From a virus (Duplodnaviria; Heunggongvirae; Uroviricota; Caudoviricetes): a DNA stretch of 13,143 nucleotides. Under the pieces are notes generated by a model. It did not search any database, had not been told where the DNA came from, and was given only the letters and a program-made list of their open reading frames with translations. The stretch lies in the IMG/VR virus record IMGVR_UViG_2617270950_000005, positions 1-13,143 of that record; one strand, given 5' to 3'. The position numbers and the translations under genes were made by a program. Every line of letters begins with the position of its first letter. Within the stretch, counting starts at the first letter, position 1. Below, piece after piece: positions 1-13,143 of this stretch.

Positions 1-1
1 A

Positions 2-667
2 CTTCTTAACATGCTGGATATTAAAGGAAAAATCATCACAACTGATGCGATGGGTTGCCAGAAAGATATTGCAGAGAAGATACAAAAACAGGGAGGTGAT
101 TATTTATTCGCGGTAAAAGGAAACCAGGGGCGGCTAAATAAAGCCTTTGAGGAAAAATTTCCGCTGAAAGAATTAAATAATCCAGCGCATGACAGTTACG
201 CAATGAGTGAAAAGAGTCACGGCAGAGAAGAAATCCGTCTTCATATTGTTTGCGATGTCCCTGATGAACTTATTGATTTCACGTTTGAATGGAAAGGGCT
301 GAAGAAATTATGCGTGGCAGTCTCCTTTCGGTCCATAATAGCAGAACAAAAGAAAGAGCTCGAAATGACGGTCAGATATTATATCAGTTCTGCTGATTTA
401 ACCGCAGAGAAGTTCGCCACAGCAATCCGAAACCACTGGCATGTGGAGAATAAGCTGCACTGGCGTCTGGACGTGGTAATGAATGAAGACGACTGCAAAA
501 TAAGAAGAGGAAATGCAGCAGAATTATTTTCAGGGATACGGCACATTGCTATTAATATTTTGACGAATGATAAGGTATTCAAGGCAGGGTTAAGACGTAA
601 GATGCGAAAAGCAGCCATGGACAGAAACTACCTGGCGTCAGTCCTTACGGGGAGCGGGCTTTCGTAA
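2..667 (+). CDS. ydcC: ISAs1-family (H-repeat-associated) transposase, C-terminal part; the gene starts upstream of the window
   Basis: Open frame runs from the window edge to TAA at 665-667. Translation (…[30 protein letters not shown]…[20 protein letters not shown]…) resembles Rhs-associated H-repeat / ISAs1 transposases. Its position upstream of pptA-yddH-nhoA matches the K-12 gene order as I recall it. Confidence 0.75.
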
Positions 668-766
668 TCTTGCCCTGGGCATTATTGTCGTATAAACGCT
701 TTACCGGACACATGACATTCACAATGTGTGTTAATTTTACTGACATCTTTCAAAAGGAGCGTAATC

Positions 767-1000
767 ATGCCGCACATCGACATTAAATGTTTTCCGCGTG
801 AACTGGACGAACAACAAAAAGCAGCACTTGCTGCAGATATTACCGACGTTATTATTCGTCATCTGAACAGTAAAGACAGTTCGATAAGCATTGCTCTACA
901 GCAGATTCAACCAGAATCTTGGCAAGCTATCTGGGATGCCGAAATCGCGCCCCAAATGGAGGCTTTGATAAAGAAACCTGGTTATAGCATGAATGCTTAA
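767..1000 (+). CDS. pptA: Tautomerase PptA (4-oxalocrotonate tautomerase family), 77 aa
   Basis: ATG at 767 lies 7 nt after AAGGAG. The protein begins [13 protein letters not shown], with the N-terminal Pro typical of the tautomerase superfamily. The track ORF 728-1000 starts at an upstream GTG that is probably not used. Confidence 0.85.
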
Positions 1001-1566
1001 CCCGCCGTAACACGCTTGCCGCTGGTAACAAACGTCCCAGCACCTAAATGATGCAACGTATTGAGCTTATCATCATCAAACTGCCAGCGGCCTTCGACAA
1101 ATACCCGTGCGTCTGCCGCTGCTGATACTACTTCGCCAAACAGCGTGTCGTATTCTTCTTGCGCAGAAGTCGCAGGTAGCAATCGACACTCCATCCACGC
1201 CAGACATTTTTCCTCGACCAGAGGCAAACCAAATACCGGGCCTCTCACAACCGGAATGCCATAGCAATTAAATTTATCTTCATCACGCCCCGACACACTT
1301 CCCACCGCCCACGTCCAGTTAGTTGCTGCAACGCCCGGGATAACGATGCCAAATTTACCGTTATGTTCAATCAACTCCCTGGTCCATGTCGATTTATCTA
1401 CCACAATCGCCACGCGTGGAGGTTCAAACTCCACCGGCATTGACCAGGCTGCAGCCATAATGTTACGCCGCTGGGATTGCTCATCGAAACTGGTGATCAA
1501 GACCGTTGGGCCATGATTTAACAGACGGCTGGCATGGTGTAATTCTATGGGGATGAATCGGCTCAT
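997..1566 (-). CDS. yddH: Flavin reductase-like domain protein YddH, 189 aa
   Basis: Minus-strand ORF. The internal Met ([26 protein letters not shown]…) gives the expected length. Convergent with pptA, and the two stop codons overlap. Confidence 0.8.
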
Positions 1567-1738
1567 GGTATCGCCTCGCGAAGAAGGTTTTTTTAAGCGT
1601 AGTCCGTAACGCAATAAGTAACGAAATTAACGGGATTGGCGATTTGCGAACGTGATGCATGTCCGCGATCGCACAAAATAGCCGGTGCGGCGTCTATTCC
1701 AGGTTATAAGTTGAGAAAACCACTAAGGGAAACGCCTG

Positions 1739-2584
1739 ATGACGCCCATTCTGAATCACTATTTTGCCCGTATTAACTGGTCGGGAGCTGCTGCGGTCAA
1801 TATTGATACGCTTCGTGCATTGCACCTGAAACACAATTGCACCATTCCGTTTGAAAACCTCGACGTTTTGCTGCCGAGGGAAATACAGCTTGATAATCAA
1901 TCGCCGGAAGAGAAACTGGTGATAGCCCGTCGTGGCGGTTACTGTTTTGAGCAGAATGGCGTGTTTGAGCGGGTGTTACGCGAGCTGGGGTTTAACGTTC
2001 GCAGCTTGTTAGGGCGCGTAGTGTTATCAAATCCGCCAGCATTACCGCCGCGCACCCATCGTTTGCTGTTGGTGGAACTGGAAGAGGAAAAATGGATTGC
2101 TGATGTCGGTTTCGGTGGGCAGACGCTAACCGCGCCGATTCGTTTAGTTTCCGATCTCGTGCAGACCACGCCACACGGAGAGTATCGGTTGTTGCAGGAG
2201 GGGGATGATTGGGTGTTGCAGTTTAATCATCATCAGCATTGGCAGTCGATGTACCGTTTTGATCTCTGCGAGCAGCAACAAAGCGATTATGTGATGGGCA
2301 ATTTCTGGTCGGCGCACTGGCCGCAGTCGCATTTTCGCCATCATTTGCTGATGTGCCGCCATTTGCCGGACGGCGGCAAGCTGACACTGACCAATTTTCA
2401 TTTTACCCATTATGAAAATGGGCACGCGGTGGAGCAGCGAAATCTACCGGATGTGGCGTCATTATATGCTGTGATGCAAGAACAGTTTGGTCTGGGCGTG
2501 GATGATGCGAAACATGGCTTTACCGTGGATGAGTTAGCGCTGGTGATGGCGGCGTTTGATACGCACCCGGAGGCGGGAAAATAA
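1739..2584 (+). CDS. nhoA: Arylamine N-acetyltransferase (N-hydroxyarylamine O-acetyltransferase), 281 aa
   Basis: 281-aa ORF preceded by AAGGGA. It carries the NAT-family catalytic Cys context (RRGGYCFEQN) and matches the expected gene order after yddH. Confidence 0.9.
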   Translation: MTPILNHYFARINWSGAAAVNIDTLRALHLKHNCTIPFENLDVLLPREIQLDNQSPEEKLVIARRGGYCFEQNGVFERVLRELGFNVRSLLGRVVLSNPPALPPRTHRLLLVELEEEKWIADVGFGGQTLTAPIRLVSDLVQTTPHGEYRLLQEGDDWVLQFNHHQHWQSMYRFDLCEQQQSDYVMGNFWSAHWPQSHFRHHLLMCRHLPDGGKLTLTNFHFTHYENGHAVEQRNLPDVASLYAVMQEQFGLGVDDAKHGFTVDELALVMAAFDTHPEAGK

Positions 2585-2595
2585 TTTATGTCAGG

Positions 2596-2630
2596 TTGCC
2601 GGATGCGGCGTAAACGCCTTATCCGGCATA
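2596..2630. repeat. REP (repetitive extragenic palindromic) element in the nhoA-yddE intergenic region
   Basis: GCCGGATGCGGCGTAAACGCCTTATCCGGC is the classic enterobacterial REP consensus shape. It is flanked by the inverted pair TGTCAGG (2589-2595) and CCTGACA (2650-2656). Confidence 0.6.
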
Positions 2631-2679
2631 CATTAGCCCGGTTGTAGACCTGACAGGCGAAGCGCATCAGACAACGGTT

Positions 2680-2865
2680 TCAGAGTTCAATTGCCCATTC
2701 GGCATGAAACAAAATCACCGCTGTGCCTGAAATGGTGACTTTTTCCGGTTGGTTATCACGAATTGTCACCGTCACTTCAATCATACCGTCACGCCCCAAT
2801 GCGCGCCCCTGATGGCCTTTAACACGCAACACGTTGCCATCGTGGGGCAATTGTAACCAGGTGAA
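2680..2865 (-). pseudogene. yddE: 3' remnant (C-terminal ~62 codons) of PhzF-family isomerase gene yddE, truncated by the prophage insertion
   Basis: Minus-strand frame ending at stop (TCA on plus strand, 2680-2682) translates to …FTWLQLPHDGNVLRVKGHQGRALGRDGMIEVTVTIRDNQPEKVTISGTAVILFHAEWAIEL. This has the G-x-I-x-V-x-V … G-x-A-V pattern of PhzF/YddE C-termini. The frame hits a stop at 2866-2868 where prophage-like sequence begins, with no start codon or N-terminal part. Confidence 0.6.
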
Positions 2866-3101
2866 TCATTTGATACCAACGAGGGTTTTAGTGAAAGGAG
2901 GTGAAATCACCTGTAAGATACTGAAATAAAACAGGTGATGTCTGGATGAGCGCTTAAAGTCTATTTGATATCGATTGTGCAATAATTAATCGTTTATTCT
3001 AAAATCGGCAAAACTTTTGATACTGCGATCTCAACTTTTTAAAGCGTTTAAAACTTCATTAAATCTATATGGCAACTAACATACGGGCCAGCCTCGCCAA
3101 A
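2866..3101. repeat. Putative prophage left-end (attL-like) region with repeated candidate transposase-binding motifs
   Basis: TTTGATAYY occurs three times (2869-2877, 2964-2972, 3016-3024), spaced 95 and 52 bp, similar to the L1/L2/L3 layout of Mu attL. A perfect palindrome AGGTGAAATCACCT lies at 2899-2912 and CAGGTGA recurs at 2932-2938. Confidence 0.35.
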
Positions 3102-3632
3102 CTAACCCGCTTTAGATTCTACCGGATTTGATTGCCTACTTGTCTCGGTTTTTTCCAAAATCTCTCTGACGCAATCGTCTGGCATATCTACAATCATCAA
3201 CGCAGCCAGGCGCTTCCTGCCTTCTAGTTGTAATAAATCCTGGTTTTCTTTATTCAGCAGTGTCAGAACCGTCTCCACACCTTTGCGAGCAAGGAGATTG
3301 GTTAACTGTTCTCGTTCGTCTTTCGTAAGGAATGAAAGCATCTGTGTAAGCTGATCTCCCTTATCACCAGAACAACCAAAATTACCATAAATACCAATAT
3401 CGTTTGGTAATTCACCCTTGCCCTCTTTAAGCCACTCAAGACTAACGCCTTCACTTTCAGAAATTCGTATAAGGATACTTTCTCTGGGGGCTGGTTGTGT
3501 TTGTCCTCCCTTGAAATAGCTGTTTAATGTGTTGATATTGATTCCCCACGCTCTGGCAGCTGCACTTCTTGAAGGGTAGCGCTTTGTAAGCATTCCAATA
3601 CGTTCAATAACAGGTTCTTTTCCCTGCGACAT
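3102..3632 (-). CDS. c: Mu-type repressor (c-like), about 176 aa
   Basis: Leftward ORF divergent from ner, the same position as Mu c. Start taken at ATG (CAT 3630-3632) with AGAGGT 6 nt upstream; the longer track ORF reaching 3707 is an unsupported N-terminal extension. N-terminal region (RIGMLTKRYPSRSAAARAWGININTLNSYFKGG) looks like an HTH. Confidence 0.65.
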   Translation of the reverse strand: MSQGKEPVIERIGMLTKRYPSRSAAARAWGININTLNSYFKGGQTQPAPRESILIRISESEGVSLEWLKEGKGELPNDIGIYGNFGCSGDKGDQLTQMLSFLTKDEREQLTNLLARKGVETVLTLLNKENQDLLQLEGRKRLAALMIVDMPDDCVREILEKTETSRQSNPVESKAG

Positions 3633-3707
3633 AAAGATACCTCTTGGTGCTTTTCTAAGGAAAGGTTTCTTTCTATTTATCCAATTGAAAAATAAGGATA
3701 AAAGCAA

Positions 3708-3822
3708 AAATTAGCCAAAATACCAAAAATACCTTGATTTGGTATTTTTGGTGATGCATTATTTACCCGTACAGATATCCGCACGAATATCCGCGCGGGT
3801 AACTTTTTAGAATAGAGGAAGT
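3708..3822. promoter_or_regulatory. Divergent early promoter/operator region between repressor and ner
   Basis: CCAAAATACC at 3715-3724. Inverted repeat CCAAAAATACC (3723-3733) / GGTATTTTTGG (3741-3751). Tandem 12-bp direct repeats GATATCCGCACG (3774-3785) and AATATCCGCGCG (3786-3797) just upstream of ner. TTGATT at 3734-3739 is a possible -35. Confidence 0.55.
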
Positions 3823-4071
3823 ATGAGTAGAAGAGAAGTTTCAGATCACGATTGGCCGCCTGAAATCATCAAGGCGCGCTTACACATGGCTGGCTTATCA
3901 CTGCGCTCTTTATCTTTAAAGGCTGGTTACAGCAGGGATTCGCTGAAAAGCGTATTACGTACTCCTTGCCGACCGTATCAGCAAATAATTGCTGATGCTC
4001 TTGGGGTATCACCTGAAGAAATCTGGCCCAGTCGATACCAGGTTAAGAGCTATATGAGAAAGGCGTCATGA
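3823..4071 (+). CDS. ner: Ner-like DNA-binding transcriptional regulator, 82 aa
   Basis: Protein has Ner/Nlp family hallmarks (…QIIADALGVSPEEIWPSRYQ…). AGAGGAAG RBS. Sits immediately upstream of the transposase gene as in Mu. Confidence 0.85.
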   Translation: MSRREVSDHDWPPEIIKARLHMAGLSLRSLSLKAGYSRDSLKSVLRTPCRPYQQIIADALGVSPEEIWPSRYQVKSYMRKAS

Positions 4072-4072
4072 T

Positions 4073-6163
4073 ATGTATGTCATTGCAAAAGAACTGATTG
4101 GCGCGCCCGGAATGCCTGCTACAACAAAAGGTATTCGCCAGGCATTACAACGTTACGTACAAGGGAAAAGCTGTTGTTCCCGTCGTCGCTCAGGCTCTAA
4201 AGCAACTGAATACAGCATCGACTGTTTACCTGAAGTGACGCAGCAGGCATTACGTGAACGCTACGCCCTGCAACTGATGACGCAAAAAGCCGATGAATCA
4301 CCGGCTCCGGTGGTGACAAAGGCCAGACGCTCACCTGCCGTGGTTGATGCGGTGGAGGCATATCGCGGATCACCCCAACTGATGGTCGAACGCCTCAATG
4401 CCCTGACTGAAAACCAACGTAAAGTGGCAGAGGCACGAATAGCGATCGTCAGCGAGGTGCTGAAAATCGCGCAACAACCCGGCTTTAGTTGCGCTAAGGC
4501 TATCCGGTTCCTCGTTAACAGCCTGGCACGATCACAACTGGACGAGCGCATTGTGGCAATGGTTGAGACGGCGAACGCCAAAAAGGGAAACAGCCGCGCG
4601 TTGAGTGAAATCACGCTGAAACGCTGGATTGCGGCCTTTAACAAGGCACAGAACGCCGCTGAACGCCTGCTTTTACTGGCACCGGGTAAACGCCAGGAAA
4701 TAAAAGCCGAAGATATTAACTGGCTGCCCGAATTTCTGGCGCAGTATCGCCAGTCAAACGGCCGACCAATGACCGAGGCTTACGAGGATTTTGTTGCTGA
4801 ATGGCAGCACCGGCACGCTGATGAGCCTTATATGCTCGATATCATGCCCTCTTATGACACCATTCGCCGCGCAATGAAGAAACTGCCGGAAGTGGTGAAA
4901 CAAAAAGGCCGGGTAACTGGCAGTGAATACCGTCAGCTTGAGGGATTCACGCGCCGCGACTGGTCCAGAATGCCGGTGAATTATGTCTGGATTGGTGACG
5001 GTCACGGCATGAAGCTGAAATGCGCGCACCCGGTTCACGGGCGGCCATTCGCACCGGAAGTGACCTTTGTTATCGACGGTGGCACGCGCTTTGTGGTGGG
5101 CTGGAGTCTTGACCTGGCTGAAAATGTTTTCGCCGTAGCCGGTGCCATACAGCACGGTATTCGCCATCATGGCAAACCGTTTCTGTATTACTCGGATAAT
5201 GGCTCCGGGGAAACCGCCGACGTCCTGGATAAGGAGATTGTGGGGATACTGCCACGACTGGGGATTAATCACCCGACAGGGATTGCCGGTAATCCGCAGG
5301 GACGGGGCATTATCGAACGGCTTAACCGCACATTACCGATGCGCATAGCCCGTAAATACCGCACCTATTTCGGGAAAGGAGCAGATCGCGAGACGTTACG
5401 TAAAACCAACCGCGATTTACGCTCGGCATTCAGTGCCCTGCAACAGGGCAAACGGCTGAACGCCCGGCAGCAGTCAGCGATGCGTGATTTACCGTCCTGG
5501 TCTGAACTGATTGATGCCATTCGTGACGGTGTTGAGTGGTACAACAACCGGCCGCACGATGAATTACCCATGAAGCCGAACGGTAAACATTACAGCCCGG
5601 CGGAGTTCAGAAAAAAACGCCTGGCGGAAGAGGACACGGAAATTGAATGGCTGTCCGATGTTGAACTGCGGGATATGTTCCGGCCGATGGTGGAGCGCCC
5701 TGTAAGACGCTGTGAAATACGCTGGCTGAATAATATTTACTACGCGCCCGAGCTGCGTGACGAGCATGGCCGTAAGGTACTTATCAGCTATGACATTCAT
5801 GATGCCGAACGAATTACCGTGCGCCGCCCGGATGGCAGCGTGATTTGCGAGGCGGTATGGGACGGCAATAAACGCGAAGCCTTCCCTGTCAGCGCGGAAT
5901 ACTACAAACAGCAGCAGCGCCTTAAAGGCATGCGTAAACGCGCAGAGGAAAAAATCCGTGATGCCGAGGATGAGGTTGTCAACGTGCTGGAGCACAAGCC
6001 GCAGGAGCCCTGGCTGGAAAACATATACCGCCCTGTGGGTAATACGGTGACCGTTCAGCAACCGGTCGCTGACGATGAACCTGATGAAGAATACGAGCGT
6101 AATTTCCAGCGGGGATTGCAACTGCTCGAAGCGAAATTAAAAGAAAGTGATCCGCTGGCCTGA
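4073..6163 (+). CDS. A: MuA-like DDE transposase, 696 aa
   Basis: Large ORF with candidate DDE residues in WIGDGHGMK, YYSDNGSG and GIIERLNRT contexts. Size and position match Mu transposase A. Confidence 0.9.
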   Translation: MYVIAKELIGAPGMPATTKGIRQALQRYVQGKSCCSRRRSGSKATEYSIDCLPEVTQQALRERYALQLMTQKADESPAPVVTKARRSPAVVDAVEAYRGSPQLMVERLNALTENQRKVAEARIAIVSEVLKIAQQPGFSCAKAIRFLVNSLARSQLDERIVAMVETANAKKGNSRALSEITLKRWIAAFNKAQNAAERLLLLAPGKRQEIKAEDINWLPEFLAQYRQSNGRPMTEAYEDFVAEWQHRHADEPYMLDIMPSYDTIRRAMKKLPEVVKQKGRVTGSEYRQLEGFTRRDWSRMPVNYVWIGDGHGMKLKCAHPVHGRPFAPEVTFVIDGGTRFVVGWSLDLAENVFAVAGAIQHGIRHHGKPFLYYSDNGSGETADVLDKEIVGILPRLGINHPTGIAGNPQGRGIIERLNRTLPMRIARKYRTYFGKGADRETLRKTNRDLRSAFSALQQGKRLNARQQSAMRDLPSWSELIDAIRDGVEWYNNRPHDELPMKPNGKHYSPAEFRKKRLAEEDTEIEWLSDVELRDMFRPMVERPVRRCEIRWLNNIYYAPELRDEHGRKVLISYDIHDAERITVRRPDGSVICEAVWDGNKREAFPVSAEYYKQQQRLKGMRKRAEEKIRDAEDEVVNVLEHKPQEPWLENIYRPVGNTVTVQQPVADDEPDEEYERNFQRGLQLLEAKLKESDPLA

Positions 6164-6171
6164 AATAAAAA

Positions 6172-6199
6172 AATAACCCGAGGGGTGACTCAGGTTATT
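6172..6199 (+). other. Stem-loop in the A-B intergenic region
   Basis: AATAACCCGAG (6172-6182) pairs with CTCAGGTTATT (6189-6199) at 10 of 11 positions across a 6-nt loop, 9 nt after the A stop codon. Confidence 0.25.
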
Positions 6200-6245
6200 T
6201 GAGGTTTCAGTCTCGGAGAATGCTGTCTCAAGCGAGGTGAATAAT

Positions 6246-7178
6246 ATGACCGATATTAACGATGTAATCAAGACCATTGATGAACTTATTGATGGCGGCG
6301 TACTGACGCAGTATGCCATCGCCAGAGAGGCGGGAATTTCCGACGGCACATTATCGGCTTTCCGTAAGGGAAAATATAAAGGCGATAACGCTGCTGTGGC
6401 TGCTTCCCTGCGCTCCTGGTATGAGAACTGGAATAAACAAAGCGCACTGCCGGAACCGCCGCAGTTTGTGGAAACTCAGACAGTCCAGGAGCTGCGCGCA
6501 CTGTTTCAGGCGGTTCGCCTGATGGGCTGTATTAACGTTATTGTGGGCGTACCGGGTGTGGGTAAAACGGCCACTGCCCGTAATTACTGCCAGGAGCAAC
6601 CAAACACCTGGATGATCACCCTGTCACCCGCGCACTCCAGCGTCACGGAGTGTCTGCTGGAGCTGGCCGATGCGCTGGGGATTGATTACACCCGCGCGAA
6701 CAAAGGGGCATTATCCCGCGCCATCCGCCGTCGCCTGATGGGAACGCGTGGACTGGTGATTGTGGATGAGGCGGATCATCTTGGTATTGACGGTCTGGAG
6801 CAACTCCGGGCAATTCAGGACGCCACGGGGATCGGGATGGTGCTTATTGGTAACCCGCGCGGATTGTTTAAAGGTGGACGCCGCGCCTTTGATGATTTAT
6901 CGCGCCTGTTCAGCCGTCTTGCCCGTACAAAACAACTTCGCAAGGCCAAAAAGGCGGATGTGCTGGCCATTGCCATGGCGTGGGGGATCAGTGGTGAGGC
7001 CGAGCTGGCCGTCATGCAGGCTATCGCTGAAAAGCCGGGAGCGTTACGCGTTCTGACACATACGCTTAACCAGGCGTGGCTCACCGCCAGCGGTGAAGGC
7101 GCGGCGCTGACAGAAAAACATATTAATGCGGCCTTTAAAGAGGTTTATACCAACCCTGAATTACTCTCACAGGTGTGA
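6246..7178 (+). CDS. B: MuB-like AAA+ ATPase (transposition target-DNA activator), about 310 aa
   Basis: Walker A GVPGVGKT and Walker B-like LVIVDEAD. N-terminal HTH-like region. Start moved to ATG 6246 just after GAGGTGA; the track start at 6237 is a GTG inside the RBS. Confidence 0.9.
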   Translation: MTDINDVIKTIDELIDGGVLTQYAIAREAGISDGTLSAFRKGKYKGDNAAVAASLRSWYENWNKQSALPEPPQFVETQTVQELRALFQAVRLMGCINVIVGVPGVGKTATARNYCQEQPNTWMITLSPAHSSVTECLLELADALGIDYTRANKGALSRAIRRRLMGTRGLVIVDEADHLGIDGLEQLRAIQDATGIGMVLIGNPRGLFKGGRRAFDDLSRLFSRLARTKQLRKAKKADVLAIAMAWGISGEAELAVMQAIAEKPGALRVLTHTLNQAWLTASGEGAALTEKHINAAFKEVYTNPELLSQV

Positions 7179-7180
7179 TT

Positions 7181-7402
7181 ATGGCGGTATTTAATATTCC
7201 TGATATTTACGGACGCTTTTACCTGGTTAATTTCGATAACGTGAAGGTGATTTCACTGGCCGAAAATAAAGAATGTGGCGATTTACTTTTTGAATTTAAT
7301 GACCGCACACGAATGGTGATATCTGCCGGACTTGATCGCGAAGGTGCGACAGAAGTTTACAGCGGAATATGCCGTTCTGTTGGTGCGAAACAAGTCAGCT
7401 AA
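7181..7402 (+). CDS. Hypothetical small protein (73 aa) in the position of Mu kil
   Basis: ORF starts right after the B stop and shares the early operon orientation. No recognisable motif. Confidence 0.5.
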   Translation: MAVFNIPDIYGRFYLVNFDNVKVISLAENKECGDLLFEFNDRTRMVISAGLDREGATEVYSGICRSVGAKQVS

Positions 7403-7414
7403 ATGAGGTGTTAT

Positions 7415-7669
7415 ATGAATATGCAATCCTGCGGTAACAAAATGAATTTATTCGACTCCCTGAACAGCGCGCGCCGTCTGACCGAACTTGCCGGTGCGGT
7501 ACTGGAACGCAGTAAGCGCTATCCGCAACGTTTTGCACTGAAAACCACGCCGCCGGTAGGCAACGTGCAGGGAACCGGTGAAATTGAAATCACCATACAG
7601 ACCAACGGCCTGCGCCGCCGTGTGAAGGCCACCCGCATCAGCGGCTGCACGGTTTACTGGGAGGTGTGA
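7415..7669 (+). CDS. Hypothetical protein, 84 aa
   Basis: ATG 7415 preceded by GAGGTG at 7406-7411; the track start at 7403 overlaps that RBS. Packed head to tail with its neighbours. Confidence 0.5.
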   Translation: MNMQSCGNKMNLFDSLNSARRLTELAGAVLERSKRYPQRFALKTTPPVGNVQGTGEIEITIQTNGLRRRVKATRISGCTVYWEV

Positions 7670-7670
7670 G

Positions 7671-7952
7671 GTGAAAAAAAATCTCATTGCATGGGCGTGG
7701 TCGAGTGGTCTTATTGAGTTTGGTTACGTCCTGCCGGAAGGTGCATTGCCGATAGTTGCCGGAAAGCCTGCCACGGTACGGCATGTGATTGAGGTTATGG
7801 CGCGTCATGGACGTGATGAACAGGAGCAGTTACTGGTTCCGGGGATACCGGAAGCGGTGACGGAGGAAGAAGCCTTTAATGCCATGATTCGGTTCTGCCG
7901 TGAGGTCAGACGCCGGGTCAGTTATCCAAACAGAACGAGGACCAGAGGATGA
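7671..7952 (+). CDS. Hypothetical protein, 93 aa (GTG start)
   Basis: GTG 7671 follows GGGAGGTGTGAGG, 2 nt after the previous stop. No recognisable motif. Confidence 0.5.
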   Translation: MKKNLIAWAWSSGLIEFGYVLPEGALPIVAGKPATVRHVIEVMARHGRDEQEQLLVPGIPEAVTEEEAFNAMIRFCREVRRRVSYPNRTRTRG

Positions 7953-8221
7953 GTAAAGTCGTACACATTATTTTCGAATATAAGGAGCACGTTATCCATA
8001 AAAACGCTGATGGAACAGTGCGCATGGGGGTAAGTCTGGACATACGTTCAACCGGGATAAAGCAGAAAGGTGATGGACCCGCCATGATTTTTGGGGTGGT
8101 TATGCTCGCGGAAAGCAGAAACTTCGCAGAGCTTGTGGCAATGAAAGCCAGTGCATTCATGAAAGACAGGGGCATGGCTTCCGGGGTTATTAACGGTAAT
8201 GAATTTAATCAGCAGGGGTAA
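7949..8221 (+). CDS. Hypothetical protein, 90 aa; first of two tandem paralogs
   Basis: ATGA overlap with the upstream ORF. N-terminus MSKVVHIIFEYKEHVIH resembles the next ORF's N-terminus. Confidence 0.55.
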   Translation: MSKVVHIIFEYKEHVIHKNADGTVRMGVSLDIRSTGIKQKGDGPAMIFGVVMLAESRNFAELVAMKASAFMKDRGMASGVINGNEFNQQG

Positions 8222-8225
8222 TTCC

Positions 8226-8519
8226 ATGAGCAAAGTACGCGTTATTTTTGAATTTAACCACGTAATGCATGAAGTAAAGCCAGCCGGTAATGATAGTCAG
8301 GAAATCACGGAGGGGGTTACTGCCACTGTAAAAATCGAACGTGATACGGAGAACAGACCGACAGGCCCATGTGATGTTTATGCGCAAATTCTTAAATATC
8401 ACAGCCCCACAATTATTCAGTTTCTGACAGATGAACTTCAGGGTTCCATGCAGGCTCTGGGGGTGAAAAGCAGCATTGAGCGCCGCTCCTTGCAGAACGC
8501 ACCAGATACATTGCAATAA
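8226..8519 (+). CDS. Hypothetical protein, 97 aa; second tandem paralog
   Basis: Start at ATG 8226 (MSKVRVIFEFNHVMH…); the track's upstream start at 8199 overlaps the preceding ORF. Shares the N-terminal motif of the previous ORF. Confidence 0.55.
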   Translation: MSKVRVIFEFNHVMHEVKPAGNDSQEITEGVTATVKIERDTENRPTGPCDVYAQILKYHSPTIIQFLTDELQGSMQALGVKSSIERRSLQNAPDTLQ

Positions 8520-8530
8520 GGAAAAACAAA

Positions 8531-9061
8531 ATGGCAAAACGCGTTACAAAATTAAAGGCTGTAGCCGAGGCCGCACCGCAGACCCGCGAAGAAGTCAGCC
8601 GCGATATCCGCACCCTGGGCGATATTCAGCGAGAGGCGCTGCGCCTGGAAACGGCGATGAATGATGAAGTGGCAGAAATCACCGCCCGTTATACGCCGCA
8701 GATTGAAAATCTTAAAAAGCAAATCAAAGTGCTTTTTAAAGGGATTCAGGACTGGTGTAAAACCAACCGTGATGAGCTGACGAACGGCGGCAAAACCAAA
8801 ACTGCCAATCTGACCACCGGAACGGTGTCATGGCGGCTGGGAACGCCATCATGCAGCGTCAGCCGTGATGTGGAAGGTGTGATTGACACGCTGCGCCGTA
8901 TGGGGCTTGAGCGATTCATCCGCACGAAAGAGGAAGTGAACAAGGAAGCCGTCCTGGCGGAGCCGGATGCGGTGAAAGGCATTGCCGGTATAAAGGTGAA
9001 TAAAGGCGCTGAAAGTTTTTATGTCGAGCCTTTTGAACAGGATGCCGGACTGAATAAATAA
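8531..9061 (+). CDS. gam: Gam-like host-nuclease inhibitor (Ku-like DNA-end-binding protein), 176 aa
   Basis: Strong resemblance along its length to Mu Gam as recalled (…RLETAMNDEVAEI…NRDELTNGGKTKTANLTTGTVSWRL…RFIRTKEEVNKEAVL…EPFEQDAGL). Confidence 0.9.
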   Translation: MAKRVTKLKAVAEAAPQTREEVSRDIRTLGDIQREALRLETAMNDEVAEITARYTPQIENLKKQIKVLFKGIQDWCKTNRDELTNGGKTKTANLTTGTVSWRLGTPSCSVSRDVEGVIDTLRRMGLERFIRTKEEVNKEAVLAEPDAVKGIAGIKVNKGAESFYVEPFEQDAGLNK

Positions 9062-9158
9062 CACCGCATTAATTATTTAAATATCACTTCATTTTAATTA
9101 TGGCGCTCGCGTCAGGGGACTGCTTGCGCCTGAAAGCTGAAAATAAGGAATCGGAAAT

Positions 9159-9701
9159 ATGGCATATTTTTATTTCAAATTAGACCGTGTGCAGACAAAT
9201 AAATATTTCACCAAATATCAACAGGCTGTTTTACCGCTACGCAACAGTATTCTTCGGACATTACTGAAAAATACAGGCGCTGCCGGATTGCGCTTAAAGC
9301 CGTTCGCCATGGACAGAATCAGTGAGTTTTATTTTGCCGGTGCTCTGCCTGCGGGCTGGCGTAAGCGCGATGATGTGGCTTTTATCGGTGGCGGACAGTG
9401 CTTTATAGCCAGACCTGATGAGTCATGCCCTGAAGGACCGGCGATTGCCGCAATGATTGAAGCCGCTGAACGCGAGTTAAGAAAGCGTCCTGATTTCCTT
9501 GTCTGGCTCTGTGAAAAGCTGGGGGTAATGAGAATCCCCTCCATGTTTAACACGGACTCCTGGTGGACCCCTTCGTTCTCCCGTGATGCCCTGTGCGTGG
9601 TGTTTAAAGTGGGCGCTTATGGCAGGGGAATAAAAGGATGTATTCCTGAAGAATGCCAGGAAATTAAACATTCTGAATATGTGGCGCTGACGGAGGAATA
9701 A
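9159..9701 (+). CDS. Hypothetical protein, 180 aa (accessory ORF A)
   Basis: ORF follows AAGGA and the only sizeable intergenic gap (97 bp) in the early operon. AT-rich 5' end. No recognisable motif. Confidence 0.55.
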   Translation: MAYFYFKLDRVQTNKYFTKYQQAVLPLRNSILRTLLKNTGAAGLRLKPFAMDRISEFYFAGALPAGWRKRDDVAFIGGGQCFIARPDESCPEGPAIAAMIEAAERELRKRPDFLVWLCEKLGVMRIPSMFNTDSWWTPSFSRDALCVVFKVGAYGRGIKGCIPEECQEIKHSEYVALTEE

Positions 9702-9704
9702 TTC

Positions 9705-10238
9705 ATGATTGATGCAAAAGTGCTTGAAGGGGTTAAAAACTGGCTGAGTATTTACGGGCGTCTGACCTGCGGCGTACTGGCTGAAAAAATGAATATGCCG
9801 CCATCCTCCATGGTTTATTTTCTGCGTGATGCGGTTGATGCCGGGGTGCTGACGGAATGTAACGGTTTTTATGATATTCCGCGTTCCCGCCCGGTGCAGC
9901 CGATTCGTCGCAAATGCAGACAGGAATCTGCGGCTGATGATGTTCAGTGGTGCAGCTTCAGAAAATCCCTGCCATGGATTGAGGGGCATGATATTCCGTC
10001 GATGGCGTGGGAATTTGCTCAGGGCGTTCTGACCTGTGAAACCGTTTATGTGGTGGCTGAAGTTGATGAGCAGGCCATGAAAGAAGGCGTGCCCCAGTTT
10101 GTGATGGCGTATATCGACATTCGCCTGGGTGTCATCATCTGCGGTTTAAGCGGCTGGAATATCACCGCGCGTGTTCTGCGCTACCTGATTGTTGACCGGA
10201 CAGCAGCGCCTGCCGGGATATCTGCGGAGGTGGCGTAA
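9705..10238 (+). CDS. Hypothetical protein, 177 aa, with possible N-terminal winged-helix DNA-binding domain (accessory ORF B)
   Basis: 3-nt gap from ORF A. N-terminal 60 aa (…GVKNWLSIYGRLTCGVLAEKMNMPPSSMVYFLRDAVDAGVLTE) has a wHTH-like pattern. C-terminal half has no known motif. Confidence 0.55.
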   Translation: MIDAKVLEGVKNWLSIYGRLTCGVLAEKMNMPPSSMVYFLRDAVDAGVLTECNGFYDIPRSRPVQPIRRKCRQESAADDVQWCSFRKSLPWIEGHDIPSMAWEFAQGVLTCETVYVVAEVDEQAMKEGVPQFVMAYIDIRLGVIICGLSGWNITARVLRYLIVDRTAAPAGISAEVA

Positions 10239-10753
10239 TGTTCTTTAAAACATCAAACCCTTCCGCGCTGGCTGCGTGGCAAAAATACCAGCAGGACTGC
10301 CAGACGGTAAAAGATGAGGCGAAACGCCTTGAGGCCGTGCTGAATGTTGCGTGCCGGTCGGTATTTGAATTCAGTATCAGTGGTTTTTGTTTTAAGGGAC
10401 TGCGTTTTACGGAGGACAAATATCCTTTTCATCGCGACTTATGGCGAAAACCGACTGCGTCGAATGGCTGGAGCTGCACACCGCGCACATCACGTATCCC
10501 TAAAGCCCTGCGTGTTGCCTCTGATGAACTGAACAGTCTGTGGCGTGAATATTCGCCCGTCACGTATGCCAGAACCGATGCCCTGTTGTTCTGGCTGGGT
10601 ATTGACTTCTCAGCAATATTGTATGGTCCCGTGAACTGGTTCTGCGTTGACAATGTGATTTATCTTCAGTGCGAAGATGATTCCGCAAAACGGAAAATGA
10701 CCGAAATTCTGTCTGATGAGTTTTATGCTGCCGAAAAGCGAGTCAGGGGGTGA
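10238..10753 (+). CDS. Hypothetical protein, 171 aa (accessory ORF C)
   Basis: TAATG stop/start overlap with ORF B indicates translational coupling. No recognisable motif. Confidence 0.55.
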   Translation: MFFKTSNPSALAAWQKYQQDCQTVKDEAKRLEAVLNVACRSVFEFSISGFCFKGLRFTEDKYPFHRDLWRKPTASNGWSCTPRTSRIPKALRVASDELNSLWREYSPVTYARTDALLFWLGIDFSAILYGPVNWFCVDNVIYLQCEDDSAKRKMTEILSDEFYAAEKRVRG

Positions 10754-10756
10754 TGT

Positions 10757-11308
10757 ATGATGATTTTACAACACATGGGGCGAAAAGGTCGTACACCCGC
10801 TCATGTCCGCGCGTGGACACCTGAAGAAGATGCGCTACTGATTGCGCTTTATTCATCCACCCCGGTTAAGGATATTGCTGCCAGAATAAAAAGAACTGTC
10901 TGGGCTGTATATAACCGGACTGGTGTATTGCGCAGTTCATACCCGGAGTTACTGAAATATAAACACCCAAGATTTACACCTGATGAAGATAAGTTTATTC
11001 GAAAAAATGCCAGAACAATGACCTGCCAGCAAATGGGAGAATATCTCGGACGTAATAAAGATTCTGTCAGATGTCGGGCAGGAATGATTGGTGCTGGATT
11101 AACAAAGTGCGGAGAGTTACGCCCCGGCACGCGCATATCTGATGATGATGTACGTCTTATACGTGCGCTGCGTGATTCCGATTACCCACGCCGTCTGTCA
11201 TTCCGGGAAATTGGCGAAAAGTTTGGAATATCTGAACATTCTGCTCACGCAGTTTATTACCGTCGCCGGACTGCCGAGGACGCTGTATTACGGGAGTTAA
11301 CGCCATGA
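10757..11308 (+). CDS. Hypothetical DNA-binding protein with three HTH-like repeats (Myb/SANT-like W-TPEED motifs), 183 aa (accessory ORF D)
   Basis: Internal repeats RAWTPEEDALLIALY…, PRFTPDEDKFIRKN…, and ISDDDVRLIRALRD…LSFREIGEKFGIS…. RBS AGGGGG before ATG 10757. Confidence 0.55.
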   Translation: MMILQHMGRKGRTPAHVRAWTPEEDALLIALYSSTPVKDIAARIKRTVWAVYNRTGVLRSSYPELLKYKHPRFTPDEDKFIRKNARTMTCQQMGEYLGRNKDSVRCRAGMIGAGLTKCGELRPGTRISDDDVRLIRALRDSDYPRRLSFREIGEKFGISEHSAHAVYYRRRTAEDAVLRELTP

Positions 11309-11634
11309 TAACGACCTTATTTGTTGAATCAGATGAACCTCTTGTGTGTGCCGCCGGAATGCCGCTCTGTGGCGGAACGCTGACCGGTGTTTATTTCGGG
11401 GATTTACGCGGTTATCCCTGGCATTCACTGAATGATGCTTTCCCACCTGATATGGAGGCTGTCGTGCTGATTGTTCAGTATGGTCACCGTCAGGAGCTGC
11501 GCATCGGCCATATGGGGTATGAAGGCTTTTTTGTTGATGAAGAAACCGGAGCCTGCCTTGAAGATGAAGACGGACAGGTGACGCACTGGTGTCATATTTC
11601 GGCTTTACCGGAATTACGGGAGGTGAATGCGTGA
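11305..11634 (+). CDS. DUF551-like phage protein, 109 aa (accessory ORF E)
   Basis: ATGA overlap with ORF D. C-terminal …DGQVTHWCHISALPE resembles the DUF551 signature (…THW.PLPEPP) common in enterobacterial prophage accessory proteins. Confidence 0.5.
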   Translation: MITTLFVESDEPLVCAAGMPLCGGTLTGVYFGDLRGYPWHSLNDAFPPDMEAVVLIVQYGHRQELRIGHMGYEGFFVDEETGACLEDEDGQVTHWCHISALPELREVNA

Positions 11635-11981
11635 GAAGTTATATTGATAATGAAAAGCTGGAGACAATAAGCGACTGTCTTAGCTTGCTGGCAAAAATCA
11701 AAGAAACTATTGAAGAGATTAAATTTCAGCTTGAATACGCACCATGTGGCGATGATGCATGGCGTAATGCTGCCAGAAAAGCACTGGCTGTCTTTCAGAA
11801 ACAACGCCGGGCTGTTGAATACCGCCTTGCTGTATTGCGCCAGGAGGAAAAGGAAAGAAATATAAGACGTCATGAACGCGTTAATGATTTCCTTGTTCGT
11901 GAATTAAAAGAGCGCGTGCCGGAGTCGGTATTTTTTGAATGTGAGGCTATAGCCCGTAGCAAAGCACTGGAAACAGATTAA
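11631..11981 (+). CDS. Hypothetical coiled-coil protein, about 116 aa (accessory ORF F)
   Basis: GTG 11631 lies 5 nt after GGGAGGTG and overlaps the ORF E stop (GTGA). The alternative ATG 11589 would overlap ORF E by 45 bp. Charged heptad-like sequence (…LAVLRQEEKERNIRRHERVNDFLVRELKER…). Confidence 0.45.
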   Translation: MRSYIDNEKLETISDCLSLLAKIKETIEEIKFQLEYAPCGDDAWRNAARKALAVFQKQRRAVEYRLAVLRQEEKERNIRRHERVNDFLVRELKERVPESVFFECEAIARSKALETD

Positions 11982-11996
11982 GCAGGCAGGTGAATA

Positions 11997-12305
11997 ATGA
12001 GTATTGAATTAAGATCGTCTTATGAATATCGCAAAATCCTTATCGCCGGAGGCATGAAACCGGAAGATGCAGAGAAATTCGTTTCTTTTATGGATAAAGA
12101 ATGTGACAAGCGGGATATGCCAGAAATTATTATGGATGACATGATTCTGGATTCAGCCGTGGCGTTAAGTCCGTTATGGATTGTGCATACTCTTGCGGAA
12201 ATAGCTAAAAGAAGTGACAAGCAGGCGGCTGTCGCCGCCCTGCGATTACTGGCTGAATTAAGTTGTTCAGTCAATCCCAATACGTTCTTTGACGAACCTG
12301 GTTAA
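11997..12305 (+). CDS. Hypothetical acidic protein, 102 aa (accessory ORF G)
   Basis: ATG preceded by AGGTGA. AT-rich. Its 3' end overlaps the convergent minus-strand ORF by 39 bp. Confidence 0.5.
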   Translation: MSIELRSSYEYRKILIAGGMKPEDAEKFVSFMDKECDKRDMPEIIMDDMILDSAVALSPLWIVHTLAEIAKRSDKQAAVAALRLLAELSCSVNPNTFFDEPG

Positions 12306-12677
12306 CATTGATTTGGTAACTTCTTTAATTAGATCAAATGGTGCGTCTGTAAACTCCTTTTTGATTCTTTCAAGGATTGGTTTTTTTCTCAGGGCGTTAG
12401 CTAAATCATGCCCCTGCTGGGTAAGCATAATGGGCGTGTTTCTGAAACCAACGCCCAGAGAATGGAAAAAGAAACCAATATATTTGGGTGTTTCTGACTG
12501 CATATCACCATTAACAATTGAGCCATTATCAGCGAGAAGCATAAGATGAAAAACTTTTTTATCCTTTTCCTCTCCTTCTGCCTCAGCCATGCCCAGATCC
12601 TGTAGTGTAAGGAAAGGTGTTTCAGCATCCTGAAAAGTTGTGAGAATACTTAATACTTCATCGTAATCTATTTTCAT
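12267..12677 (-). CDS. Hypothetical protein, 136 aa; lone minus-strand, AT-rich moron inside the rightward early operon
   Basis: Clean 136-codon ORF antisense to the early operon, with AAAGGT about 7 nt upstream of its ATG. Visibly more AT-rich than flanking prophage DNA. No recognisable motif. Confidence 0.55.
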   Translation of the reverse strand: MKIDYDEVLSILTTFQDAETPFLTLQDLGMAEAEGEEKDKKVFHLMLLADNGSIVNGDMQSETPKYIGFFFHSLGVGFRNTPIMLTQQGHDLANALRKKPILERIKKEFTDAPFDLIKEVTKSMLTRFVKERIGID

Positions 12678-12698
12678 ATCGATACCTTTAGTTTTATC

Positions 12699-12728
12699 CG
12701 GGCGGCGTTGCCATGCCGCCTGTTGTTA
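12699..12728 (+). terminator. Possible GC-rich stem-loop followed by a U-rich tract
   Basis: GGCGGC (12701-12706) pairs with GCCGCC (12715-12720) across an 8-nt loop, followed by TGTTGTTA. It lies between the minus-strand moron start and the gemA-like ORF. Confidence 0.25.
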
Positions 12729-12741
12729 CGGAGACACGATA

Positions 12742-12945
12742 ATGAATCGCGCTTCCCTGATTACCTTAATACATGTCGCAAAACGCGATCTACAGCTTGA
12801 CCATGAGACCTACACATCCGTACTACTGGCAGCCACCGGCAAACCCAGTTGCCGGGATATGTCACCGGATGAGTTATCCCGCGTGCTGGATGTTTTCAAA
12901 AAACGCGGTTTTAAAGTGCGTCAGAAGCCGGTTACCGGAATATGA
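12742..12945 (+). CDS. gemA: GemA-like (Mu gp16 / DUF1018 family) protein, short form of 67 aa
   Basis: MNRASLITLIHVAKRDLQLDHETYTSVLLAATGKPSCRDMSPDELSRVLDVFKKRGF matches the conserved N-terminal GemA/DUF1018 pattern as recalled. The ORF then stops. Confidence 0.55.
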   Translation: MNRASLITLIHVAKRDLQLDHETYTSVLLAATGKPSCRDMSPDELSRVLDVFKKRGFKVRQKPVTGI

Positions 12946-13082
12946 ATGTGCTGGATGATATTCTCACGCCGCTGCGTATTTATGAAGGCGGTGCGCTGGA
13001 ATGTATTCTGAACCGTTATAAGCCTGCATGGCAGACGTTTATTTACGTTTATGCAAACAGCCATGAAGAGGAGACTATTTAA
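12942..13082 (+). CDS. Small ORF (46 aa) coupled to the gemA-like ORF by an ATGA overlap; possibly the frameshifted continuation of gemA
   Basis: ATG 12942 overlaps the TGA of the gemA-like ORF; ends at TAA 13080-13082. Below the 60-aa cutoff of the ORF track. No motif. Confidence 0.3.
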   Translation: MNVLDDILTPLRIYEGGALECILNRYKPAWQTFIYVYANSHEEETI

Positions 13083-13143
13083 TGTTTCATGTTGATAATA
13101 ATTCCGGCGTGGCGAATATGCCTGCGCTGGCACCGGCGCAGAG
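13082..13143 (+). CDS. 5' end of a further early-operon ORF that runs off the window
   Basis: TAATG overlap with the previous ORF. Begins MFHVDNNSGVANMPALAPAQ with no stop before the window end. Confidence 0.3.
   Translation, partial: MFHVDNNSGVANMPALAPAQ

Follow-up and report, generated by a model that had tools for sequence, protein, structure and literature searches.

The question raised by this locus is what interrupted yddE, by what route, and what became of the rest of the gene. yddE is a non-essential E. coli gene of unknown function, and its product is a PhzF-family isomerase of unknown substrate, with structures under PDB entries 1QY9, 1QYA and 1SDJ. The stretch of DNA analyzed here (“the window”) is 13,143 nucleotides long and is the complete contig JONB01000034.1 (13,143 bp) of GCA_000711515.1, a draft assembly for which a literature search found no paper. 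An initial annotation of the window had proposed that yddE was cut by a Mu-like element that arrived by transposition.

Window positions 1–2851 correspond to the ydcC-pptA-yddH-nhoA-yddE region of E. coli K-12, with a single mismatch to K-12 MG1655 in 2851 bases, at position 2203; the nhoA-yddE region itself (2560–2851) is 100% identical to K-12. yddE can be regarded as near-core because this 2560–2851 segment is covered over at least 80% of its length in 5187 of 5426 complete E. coli genomes, with 100% identity in many. The convergent neighbor of yddE, nhoA, is intact. BLAST queries that included the spacer between the two genes matched at 23 sites in each E. coli genome (median), owing to the REP-type repeat located there.

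The place where yddE ends can be given to the base. When the window is aligned with both K-12 and Sakai Sp18, the breakpoint between host and phage falls between positions 2851 and 2852. The window reads ...GGGGCAAT followed by TGTAACCAGG, K-12 reads ...GGGGCAAT followed by ACGTTG, and Sakai Sp18 reads ...TTAAA followed by TGTAACCAGG. Identity to K-12 runs up to base 2851, where the last host bases are ...CATCGTGGGGCAAT and K-12 continues with ACGTTG, and divergence beyond that base is complete. The phage match begins at 2852 with TGTAACCAGGTG, such that the left end of the element (5'-TGTAACC...) is joined directly to host base 2851. The initial annotation had called for an alignment to an uninterrupted nhoA-yddE locus, and it is this alignment that fixes the breakpoint.

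The intact yddE gene of K-12 has 297 codons. What remains in the window is the stop codon, 56 codons (L242–L297) and the third base of V241. The earlier reading of a C-terminal PhzF-family remnant of YddE was right in kind and slightly too generous in extent: of the 62 codons it counted (2680–2865), 56 belong to yddE, and another five (FTWLQ) are phage-end or chimeric sequence in the same open frame. The interval 2680–3101 that it had marked divides into yddE sequence (2680–2851) and the non-coding left end of the prophage (2852–3101). The translation of 2680–2865 does align to YddE and PhzF, as had been anticipated. The match to the Pfam family PF02567 (PhzC-PhzF) has an E-value of 1.2e-8 and covers profile positions 235–280 of 281, at 35.2 bits relative to a cut-off of 27, and the 56 residues encoded at 2683–2850 align over their full length to residues 242–297 of the crystallized YddE protein, 1QY9 (E=1.5e-32). 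In contrast to full YddE, the fragment cannot function, because only 19% of the protein is left and the N-terminal 241 residues are gone; moreover, the 56-codon fragment has neither a promoter nor a start codon of its own.

The DNA to the right of the breakpoint was identified by comparison with known prophages. Dozens of genomes have an annotated Mu-like prophage, Sakai Sp18 among them, with 99.0–99.8% identity to positions 2852–4100, and positions 12001–12938 are 99.8–99.9% identical to the prophages of JKHS016 and JE86-ST05. Over 2852–13143, the part of it in the window, the element matches a Mu-like phage inserted in an Stx2c phage at 93.9% identity over 93% of the sequence. The nearest relatives are Sp18 of O157:H7 Sakai, Phi804-3 of FRIK804, and the Mu-like phages of STEC CC119, O26, O103, O111 and O145. 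With this group the window element shares 99.0–99.8% nucleotide identity in the left end and early region, the same termini, the same six transposase-site repeats, the gene order c, ner, A, B, kil, gam onwards, and strain-specific insertion that disrupts genes, sorM in Sakai being one example. It differs from the group in its insertion at yddE codon 241, found in none of 5426 complete genomes, and in a deletion of ~22 kb from gemA to ymfQ. Sp18 has been described as predicted to be intact and as packaged but not circularized (PMC2669165). The features of the window are listed in the table.

Table. Features of the 13,143-nucleotide window, with the evidence for each
Feature	Position	Strand	Evidence
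ydcC (ISAs1-family transposase)	11–667		Start of window; K-12 gene order, with pptA and yddH, then nhoA
nhoA (N-hydroxyarylamine O-acetyltransferase), intact	1739–2584	+	Pfam Acetyltransf_2, E=2e-88; same synteny in K-12
nhoA-yddE intergenic spacer with REP-like palindromic repeat (GCCGGATGCGGCGTAAACGCCTTATCCGGC)	2585–2679		Sequence reading
yddE 3' fragment (PhzF-family isomerase)	2680–2851	-	100% identity to K-12
CAAT, host bases predicted as 4-bp target duplication	2848–2851		Analogy with relatives
Prophage left end (attL), 5'-TG start, non-coding	2852–3101	+	Matches in 231 genomes
TTTGATAY repeats, same orientation (candidate transposase-binding sites)	L1 2869–2876; L2 2964–2971; L3 3016–3023		
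Repressor (c-like), 176 aa	3102–3632	-	PHROG 3037 transcriptional repressor, E=7e-61; 176 aa in relatives' annotation
Inverted repeat in divergent c-ner control region (predicted operator)	3722–3752 (31 bp)		12-pair stem, terminator scan
ner-like early regulator, 82 aa	3823–4071	+	Pfam HTH_35, E=2.5e-19; PHROG 769
Transposase A, 696 aa	4073–6163	+	Mu-transpos_C, E=2e-17; HTH_Tnp_Mu_1, E=2e-6; PHROG 310, E=3e-211
MuB-type AAA+ transposition ATPase (B)	6237–7178	+	Phage-MuB_C (PF09077), E=8e-25, 87 bits; AAA_22, 66 bits; PHROG 296
Early-region genes	7403–9061	+	kil 7403–7669 (PHROG 2679, E=8e-46); gam 8531–9061 (PHROG 491, E=5e-69)
Truncated gemA/gp16, 67 aa (170 aa in relatives), ending just past the junction	12742–12945	+	Pfam GemA
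Internal deletion junction, ...GAAGCCGGT joined to TACCGGAATATG...	12932–12933		Alignment to intact relatives
YmfQ/gp48-like baseplate gene, 3' end	12933–13143	+	98–99% identical to FRIK804 32419–32638

The gene content is that of a transposable phage. The pair of DDE transposase and AAA+ ATPase reported by the initial annotation is borne out by profile matches to the Mu-transpos_C family (ORF 4073–6163) and, for the gene directly downstream, to Phage-MuB_C and AAA_22 (ORF 6237–7178), and the two transposase A matches score 63 bits for PF09299 (cut-off 21.7) and 28.5 bits for PF02316 (cut-off 23.3). The mechanically called ORF of the repressor runs to 3707, from a TTG codon; the window copy belongs to the immunity type with the 176-aa repressor. 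The 31-bp inverted repeat between c and ner reads ACCAAAAATACC...GGTATTTTTGGT, and its position suggests that it is probably an operator. Downstream of kil and gam lie conserved early genes. Between these and gemA is a variable accessory slot (11997–12677), containing a DUF2513-type gene (12267–12677; PHROG 585) on the opposite strand and an overlapping 102-aa ORF. The DUF2513-type gene is kept in JKHS016 and JE86-ST05 and is absent from FRIK804, which has other genes in the slot. PADLOC gave no match to the accessory ORFs, and a search of the window against Rfam found no family at gathering score.

Evidence that the element arrived by transposition came from the distribution of its left end. 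The 250-bp sequence at 2852–3101 occurs at 282 places in 231 of the 5426 complete E. coli genomes, and the listed matches start at window base 2852, except for two, with 91–93% identity, that start at base 3 of the query. The genes flanking the left end are unrelated from genome to genome and include citF, rhsD, dcuC, tauA, motA, torZ and genes of other prophages; in three aligned examples, the base preceding the TG of the left end is T, G or A. Sp18-like phages have likewise been reported at strain-specific sites (PMC7430833, PMC10132054). Because the same left end lies beside many different genes and ARAGORN found no tRNA in the whole window, transposition is the right explanation, and arrival of an Sp18-type Mu-like prophage in yddE by this route rather than by site-specific integration is supported. 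The core of the initial annotation therefore holds, given the exact breakpoint, the 99–99.8% identity to Sp18-type prophages, the many loci, the lack of a tRNA and the presence of c, ner, A, B, kil and gam. The interruption of yddE is a routine example of a type of event that is already known.

Parallels with Mu extend to the organization of the ends. The three TTTGATAY repeats of the window lie at offsets of +18, +113 and +165 from the left end, and those at the right end of relatives lie at +18, +40 and +75, with all six pointing inward. They are candidate transposase-binding sites, with the uneven spacing seen in Mu: L1...L2-L3 on the left and R1-R2-R3 on the right. Sp18 has been credited with six transposase sites (PMC2628397), and the six repeats described here fit that number. 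Also as in Mu, c and ner are divergent and are followed by A, B, kil and gam. Relatives of the window element carry mor, a lysis cassette, Mu-type head and tail genes, an invertible tail-fiber segment with a Gin-like invertase, and com and mom; as in Mu, transposition serves both replication and integration, at random sites.

The transposase A sequence fits a lineage separate from MuA. Among the phages listed, its best relatives outside the Sp18 group are two Yersinia phages (80–90%), followed by Pseudomonas VW-6B (47%), Klebsiella Kp4852-3 (41%) and the D3112/DMS3 group (~30%). A tblastn search with the transposase had no Escherichia phage among the ten best-represented genera listed, and a phmmer search of PDB yielded only retroviral integrase cores, with no MuA chain at E<=1e-3.

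Insertion by transposition is expected to leave a target duplication, and the initial annotation had suggested one of 5 bp. The flanks of relatives (loci L002/L014, L013, L015–L027 and L038) indicate a shorter one. For ten independent insertions in complete genomes, both flanks were compared. The base following ...GCGCTAT is A in all ten; the next four bases repeat the last four of the left flank, again in 10/10; and a fifth base agrees in four of the ten, only where the left flank has an A. All 10 complete-genome relatives thus have the right terminus ...CTATA. An exact 4-bp duplication is found in 11 of 12 relatives, comprising the 10/10 complete-genome insertions and locus L038, which has TATA at both termini and a duplication of CTAA. 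Because A is invariant and is followed by four repeated flank bases in every case, the element ends ...GCGCTATA, and the family duplicates 4 bp, not the 5 bp of Mu. With the terminal A counted, the first TTTGATAY repeat lies at +18 from both termini. Two alternative ways of drawing the ends were rejected: a right end at ...CTAT with a 5-bp duplication fails in 6/10 relatives, and a left end starting from GTAACC, again with 5 bp duplicated, is contradicted by the fifth base in 5 of 7 manually checked cases.

These features set the family apart from Mu, where the target duplication is 5 bp (PMC3325207), as is also established knowledge. Mu in the strict sense combines 5'-TG...CA-3' termini with that 5-bp duplication, whereas the elements described here have TG in the window, ...CTATA at the right end of relatives, and 4 bp. 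At the right terminus, TA thus takes the place of CA, and in some relatives both ends are TA. No description of a 4-bp duplication or of TA termini in this phage family was found in the literature searched. This departure from the Mu paradigm may interest those who work on transposable phages, if it is confirmed.

The behavior of the relatives allows a prediction of the far end of the window prophage, which lies outside the data because the window is the whole 13,143-bp contig. Since 11/12 relatives duplicate 4 bp, CAAT would be expected to recur there. By analogy, the far junction would read ...GCGCTATA, then CAAT, then ACGTTGTG, the start of the rest of yddE. The phage sequence at that end would be ...ATCGCCGCGCTATA, also given as GGTATCAAAAAAATCGCCGCGCTATA, and the yddE letters expected after CAAT are ACGTTGTGATG... 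or ACGTTGTGATGTACC.... Such a junction should create a chimeric ORF consisting of YddE 1–242 and a read-through into the phage end, which was modeled with duplications of 0, 3, 4, 5 and 6 bp, a right end of CTAT or CTATA, and both right-end variants. None of nine predicted chimeric proteins with a YddE N terminus was present in an exact look-up of a 15-billion-protein collection, and a homologue search with the predicted chimera gave no cluster representative with the chimeric tail. DNA patterns for the right and left junctions had 0 matches in genome, metagenome and viral contigs. Mom was also used as a point of entry from the right end; its cluster representative, P0121, belongs to another variant, with 96% identity, and a partial Mom, P0165, led only to contigs that end inside mom.

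The left junction recurs. At least 24 further public assemblies, which are separate NCBI assemblies, share it, as does a Logan run, and 29 blocks of the contig collection contain the 56-aa ORF that the junction makes. Ten junction contigs that were fetched are 99.7–99.99% identical to the window across the junction. Because it recurs at this level of identity in other contigs, the yddE junction is genuine and serves to mark a lineage. A second, independent dataset (locus L028, Logan SRR29071107) has it together with the gemA deletion. Among the 5426 complete E. coli genomes, yddE is never the site of the element. The contigs found with the junction all fall below 20 kb and end at various places within the prophage, a pattern suggesting that junction-bearing genomes hold further related prophage copies or repeats.

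The best explanation overall is a simple insertion, with the other half of yddE located at the far end of the prophage beyond an expected duplication; we assign it a probability of roughly 0.85. The most serious competitor is that the yddE junction represents one side of a Mu-mediated rearrangement, arising by replicative intramolecular transposition or when two Mu-like prophages recombined. In that case the 5' portion of yddE would have been lost or relocated, and there would be no flanking duplication. The failure of every look-up for the chimeric 5' ORF would fit such a rearrangement, given that the 56-aa ORF at the 3' side is on record in 29 blocks, although a single amino acid difference or a contig break inside the ORF would be enough to explain that failure. 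The uniformly short junction contigs, broken inside the prophage, also lean that way, as they would fit the presence of more prophage copies of this kind in the same genomes. A precedent comes from locus L036 (GCA_000249675.2, AIFZ01000020.1, 5400–18600), where the left end of the element lies beside a truncated fimbrial usher gene and the right end lies in narV, with no duplication (ATAG versus AGTG). The flanks of L036 are non-contiguous, its context is rearranged by, or around, the phage, and the locus indicates that Sp18-type phages do occur in rearranged contexts. Set against this precedent are the 11 of 12 examined relatives that are simple insertions with exact 4-bp duplications, and the visible host flank of the window, which is undisturbed and K-12-like. 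A rearrangement is thus an unlikely origin for the yddE junction.

As an observation in its own right, the prophage at L036 is a related element with a different deletion, and its right end in narV lies beside an intact yddE-nhoA pair, narV being one gene away from yddE.

Two other explanations carry almost no weight. The window is a short contig from a draft assembly, and unrelated reads could in principle have been fused during assembly; this is hardly credible, since no fewer than 24 contigs, from separate NCBI assemblies, and the Logan run share the identical junction, and the point at which host sequence stops is precisely the phage terminus established from 231 complete genomes. Use by a site-specific integrase of an attachment site within yddE is refuted by the spread of the same element over many unrelated loci and is just as improbable given that, as the initial annotation had noted, neither a tRNA (ARAGORN, whole window) nor an integrase (Pfam and PHROG, ORFs scanned) was found, and that 0/5426 complete genomes carry the element in yddE.

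Simple insertion being the preferred reading, the next question is the state of the prophage that was inserted. Relative to FRIK804 and JE86-ST05, 22.1–22.3 kb are absent from the window copy, including mor, the lysis genes, all of the head genes and most of the tail genes. In the last ~210 bases of the window, gemA is not continued but is joined to the YmfQ-like gene, and the segment 12933–13143 comprises a 46-aa residual ORF (12942–13082) and the first 62 bases of a tail-fiber gene, at which point the contig ends. The junction at 12932/12933 is in no complete E. coli genome, and 33 blocks of the contig collection, including gut metagenomes, list the 67-aa ORF that runs across it. Locus L033, which extends further, retains the right part of the phage with the tail-fiber genes, a Gin-like invertase and a DUF6645 gene; in other deletion types (L036–L038), com and mom come next. 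These comparisons show that the window prophage is an internally deleted, defective remnant and not an intact inducible prophage, with a predicted size of ~16.4–17.1 kb. For annotation, 2680–2851 is best labeled as a yddE pseudogene fragment, and the element as a defective Mu-like prophage.

A course of events can be proposed from what was observed: where the breakpoint lies, which two partners meet there, which genes are present, where the deletion junction falls and how the family behaves. An Sp18-type phage would have entered yddE by splitting codon 241 after its second base, with the phage-encoded DDE transposase (A) and AAA+ target-capture ATPase (B) doing the work. Only yddE should be inactivated, because it is the last gene on its strand, after narZYWV, and converges on nhoA. 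Either before or after the insertion, a deletion of ~22 kb removed the DNA from gemA to the end of the baseplate gene. The window copy retains c, ner, A, B, kil and gam and is unable to make particles; by analogy with longer contigs, the module of tail-fiber genes, gin, com and mom was probably kept too. The yddE insertion in itself matters little, Sp18-type phages being known to insert randomly and disrupt genes and the allele being already present in dozens of public draft assemblies. Its practical value lies in two clean lineage markers, namely ...GGGGCAAT joined to TGTAACCAGG... at the yddE junction and the deletion junction between gemA and ymfQ.

The right breakpoint of the deletion is shared with other elements. 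A look-up of the 46-aa residual ORF returned prophages with other deletions (loci L036–L055). There are five independent deletion types with different left partners, located after B, in A, after the tail tube gene, in the DNA-circularization gene and in gemA, and all five have their right breakpoint at TACCGGAATATG to the base (window 12933; FRIK804 L017 32428). Each type is found in at least two datasets, and microhomology at the shared breakpoint is limited to 1–3 bases. A second recurrent breakpoint is located 49 bases upstream, at ACCGGATT (FRIK804 L017 32379), and accounts for two further junction sequences. The sequence to the right of the shared breakpoint begins with TA, like the termini of the family; around it, window-like phages read CCGG-CTA-CCGG, and similar CCGG-N4-CCGG palindromes hold two of the left partners.

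These data raise the possibility, which we regard as tentative and on balance doubtful, that the 3' end of the Sp18-type gp48/YmfQ-like gene holds a hot spot for recombination, one that repeatedly yields deletion derivatives lacking the head and tail genes. Such derivatives would retain the left end, more or less of the early region (including the transposition genes in some types) and the tail-fiber/gin/mom module. The fixed end may be a pseudo-end recognized by the transposase, consistent with its TA start, but it is not accompanied by a good transposase-binding repeat, as no repeat with 2 or fewer mismatches lies at the right offset. Were the fixed end such a pseudo-end, the phage would have a built-in route to a “mini-Mu.” A more mundane alternative is illegitimate recombination at a quasi-palindrome, in keeping with the position of the breakpoints within CCGG-rich quasi-palindromes. 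Two other candidates were rejected: the true gix-like sites for Gin crossover lie at ~33107 and ~34482 in FRIK804, and a stable hairpin at the hot spot is contradicted by a fold z-score of 0.14. Reuse of one breakpoint to the base may be of interest to those studying transposable phages, if confirmed. In the 229 complete genomes that match the hot-spot region, every genome has a copy covering at least 80% of it.

Damage of other kinds was seen among the closest relatives in complete genomes. The prophage of JKHS016 (L013) has an inverted and deleted late region, and that of JMF1 (L016) has an IS903B insertion with an adjacent deletion. With both of these copies damaged, decayed copies seem to be common among the non-O157 relatives examined.
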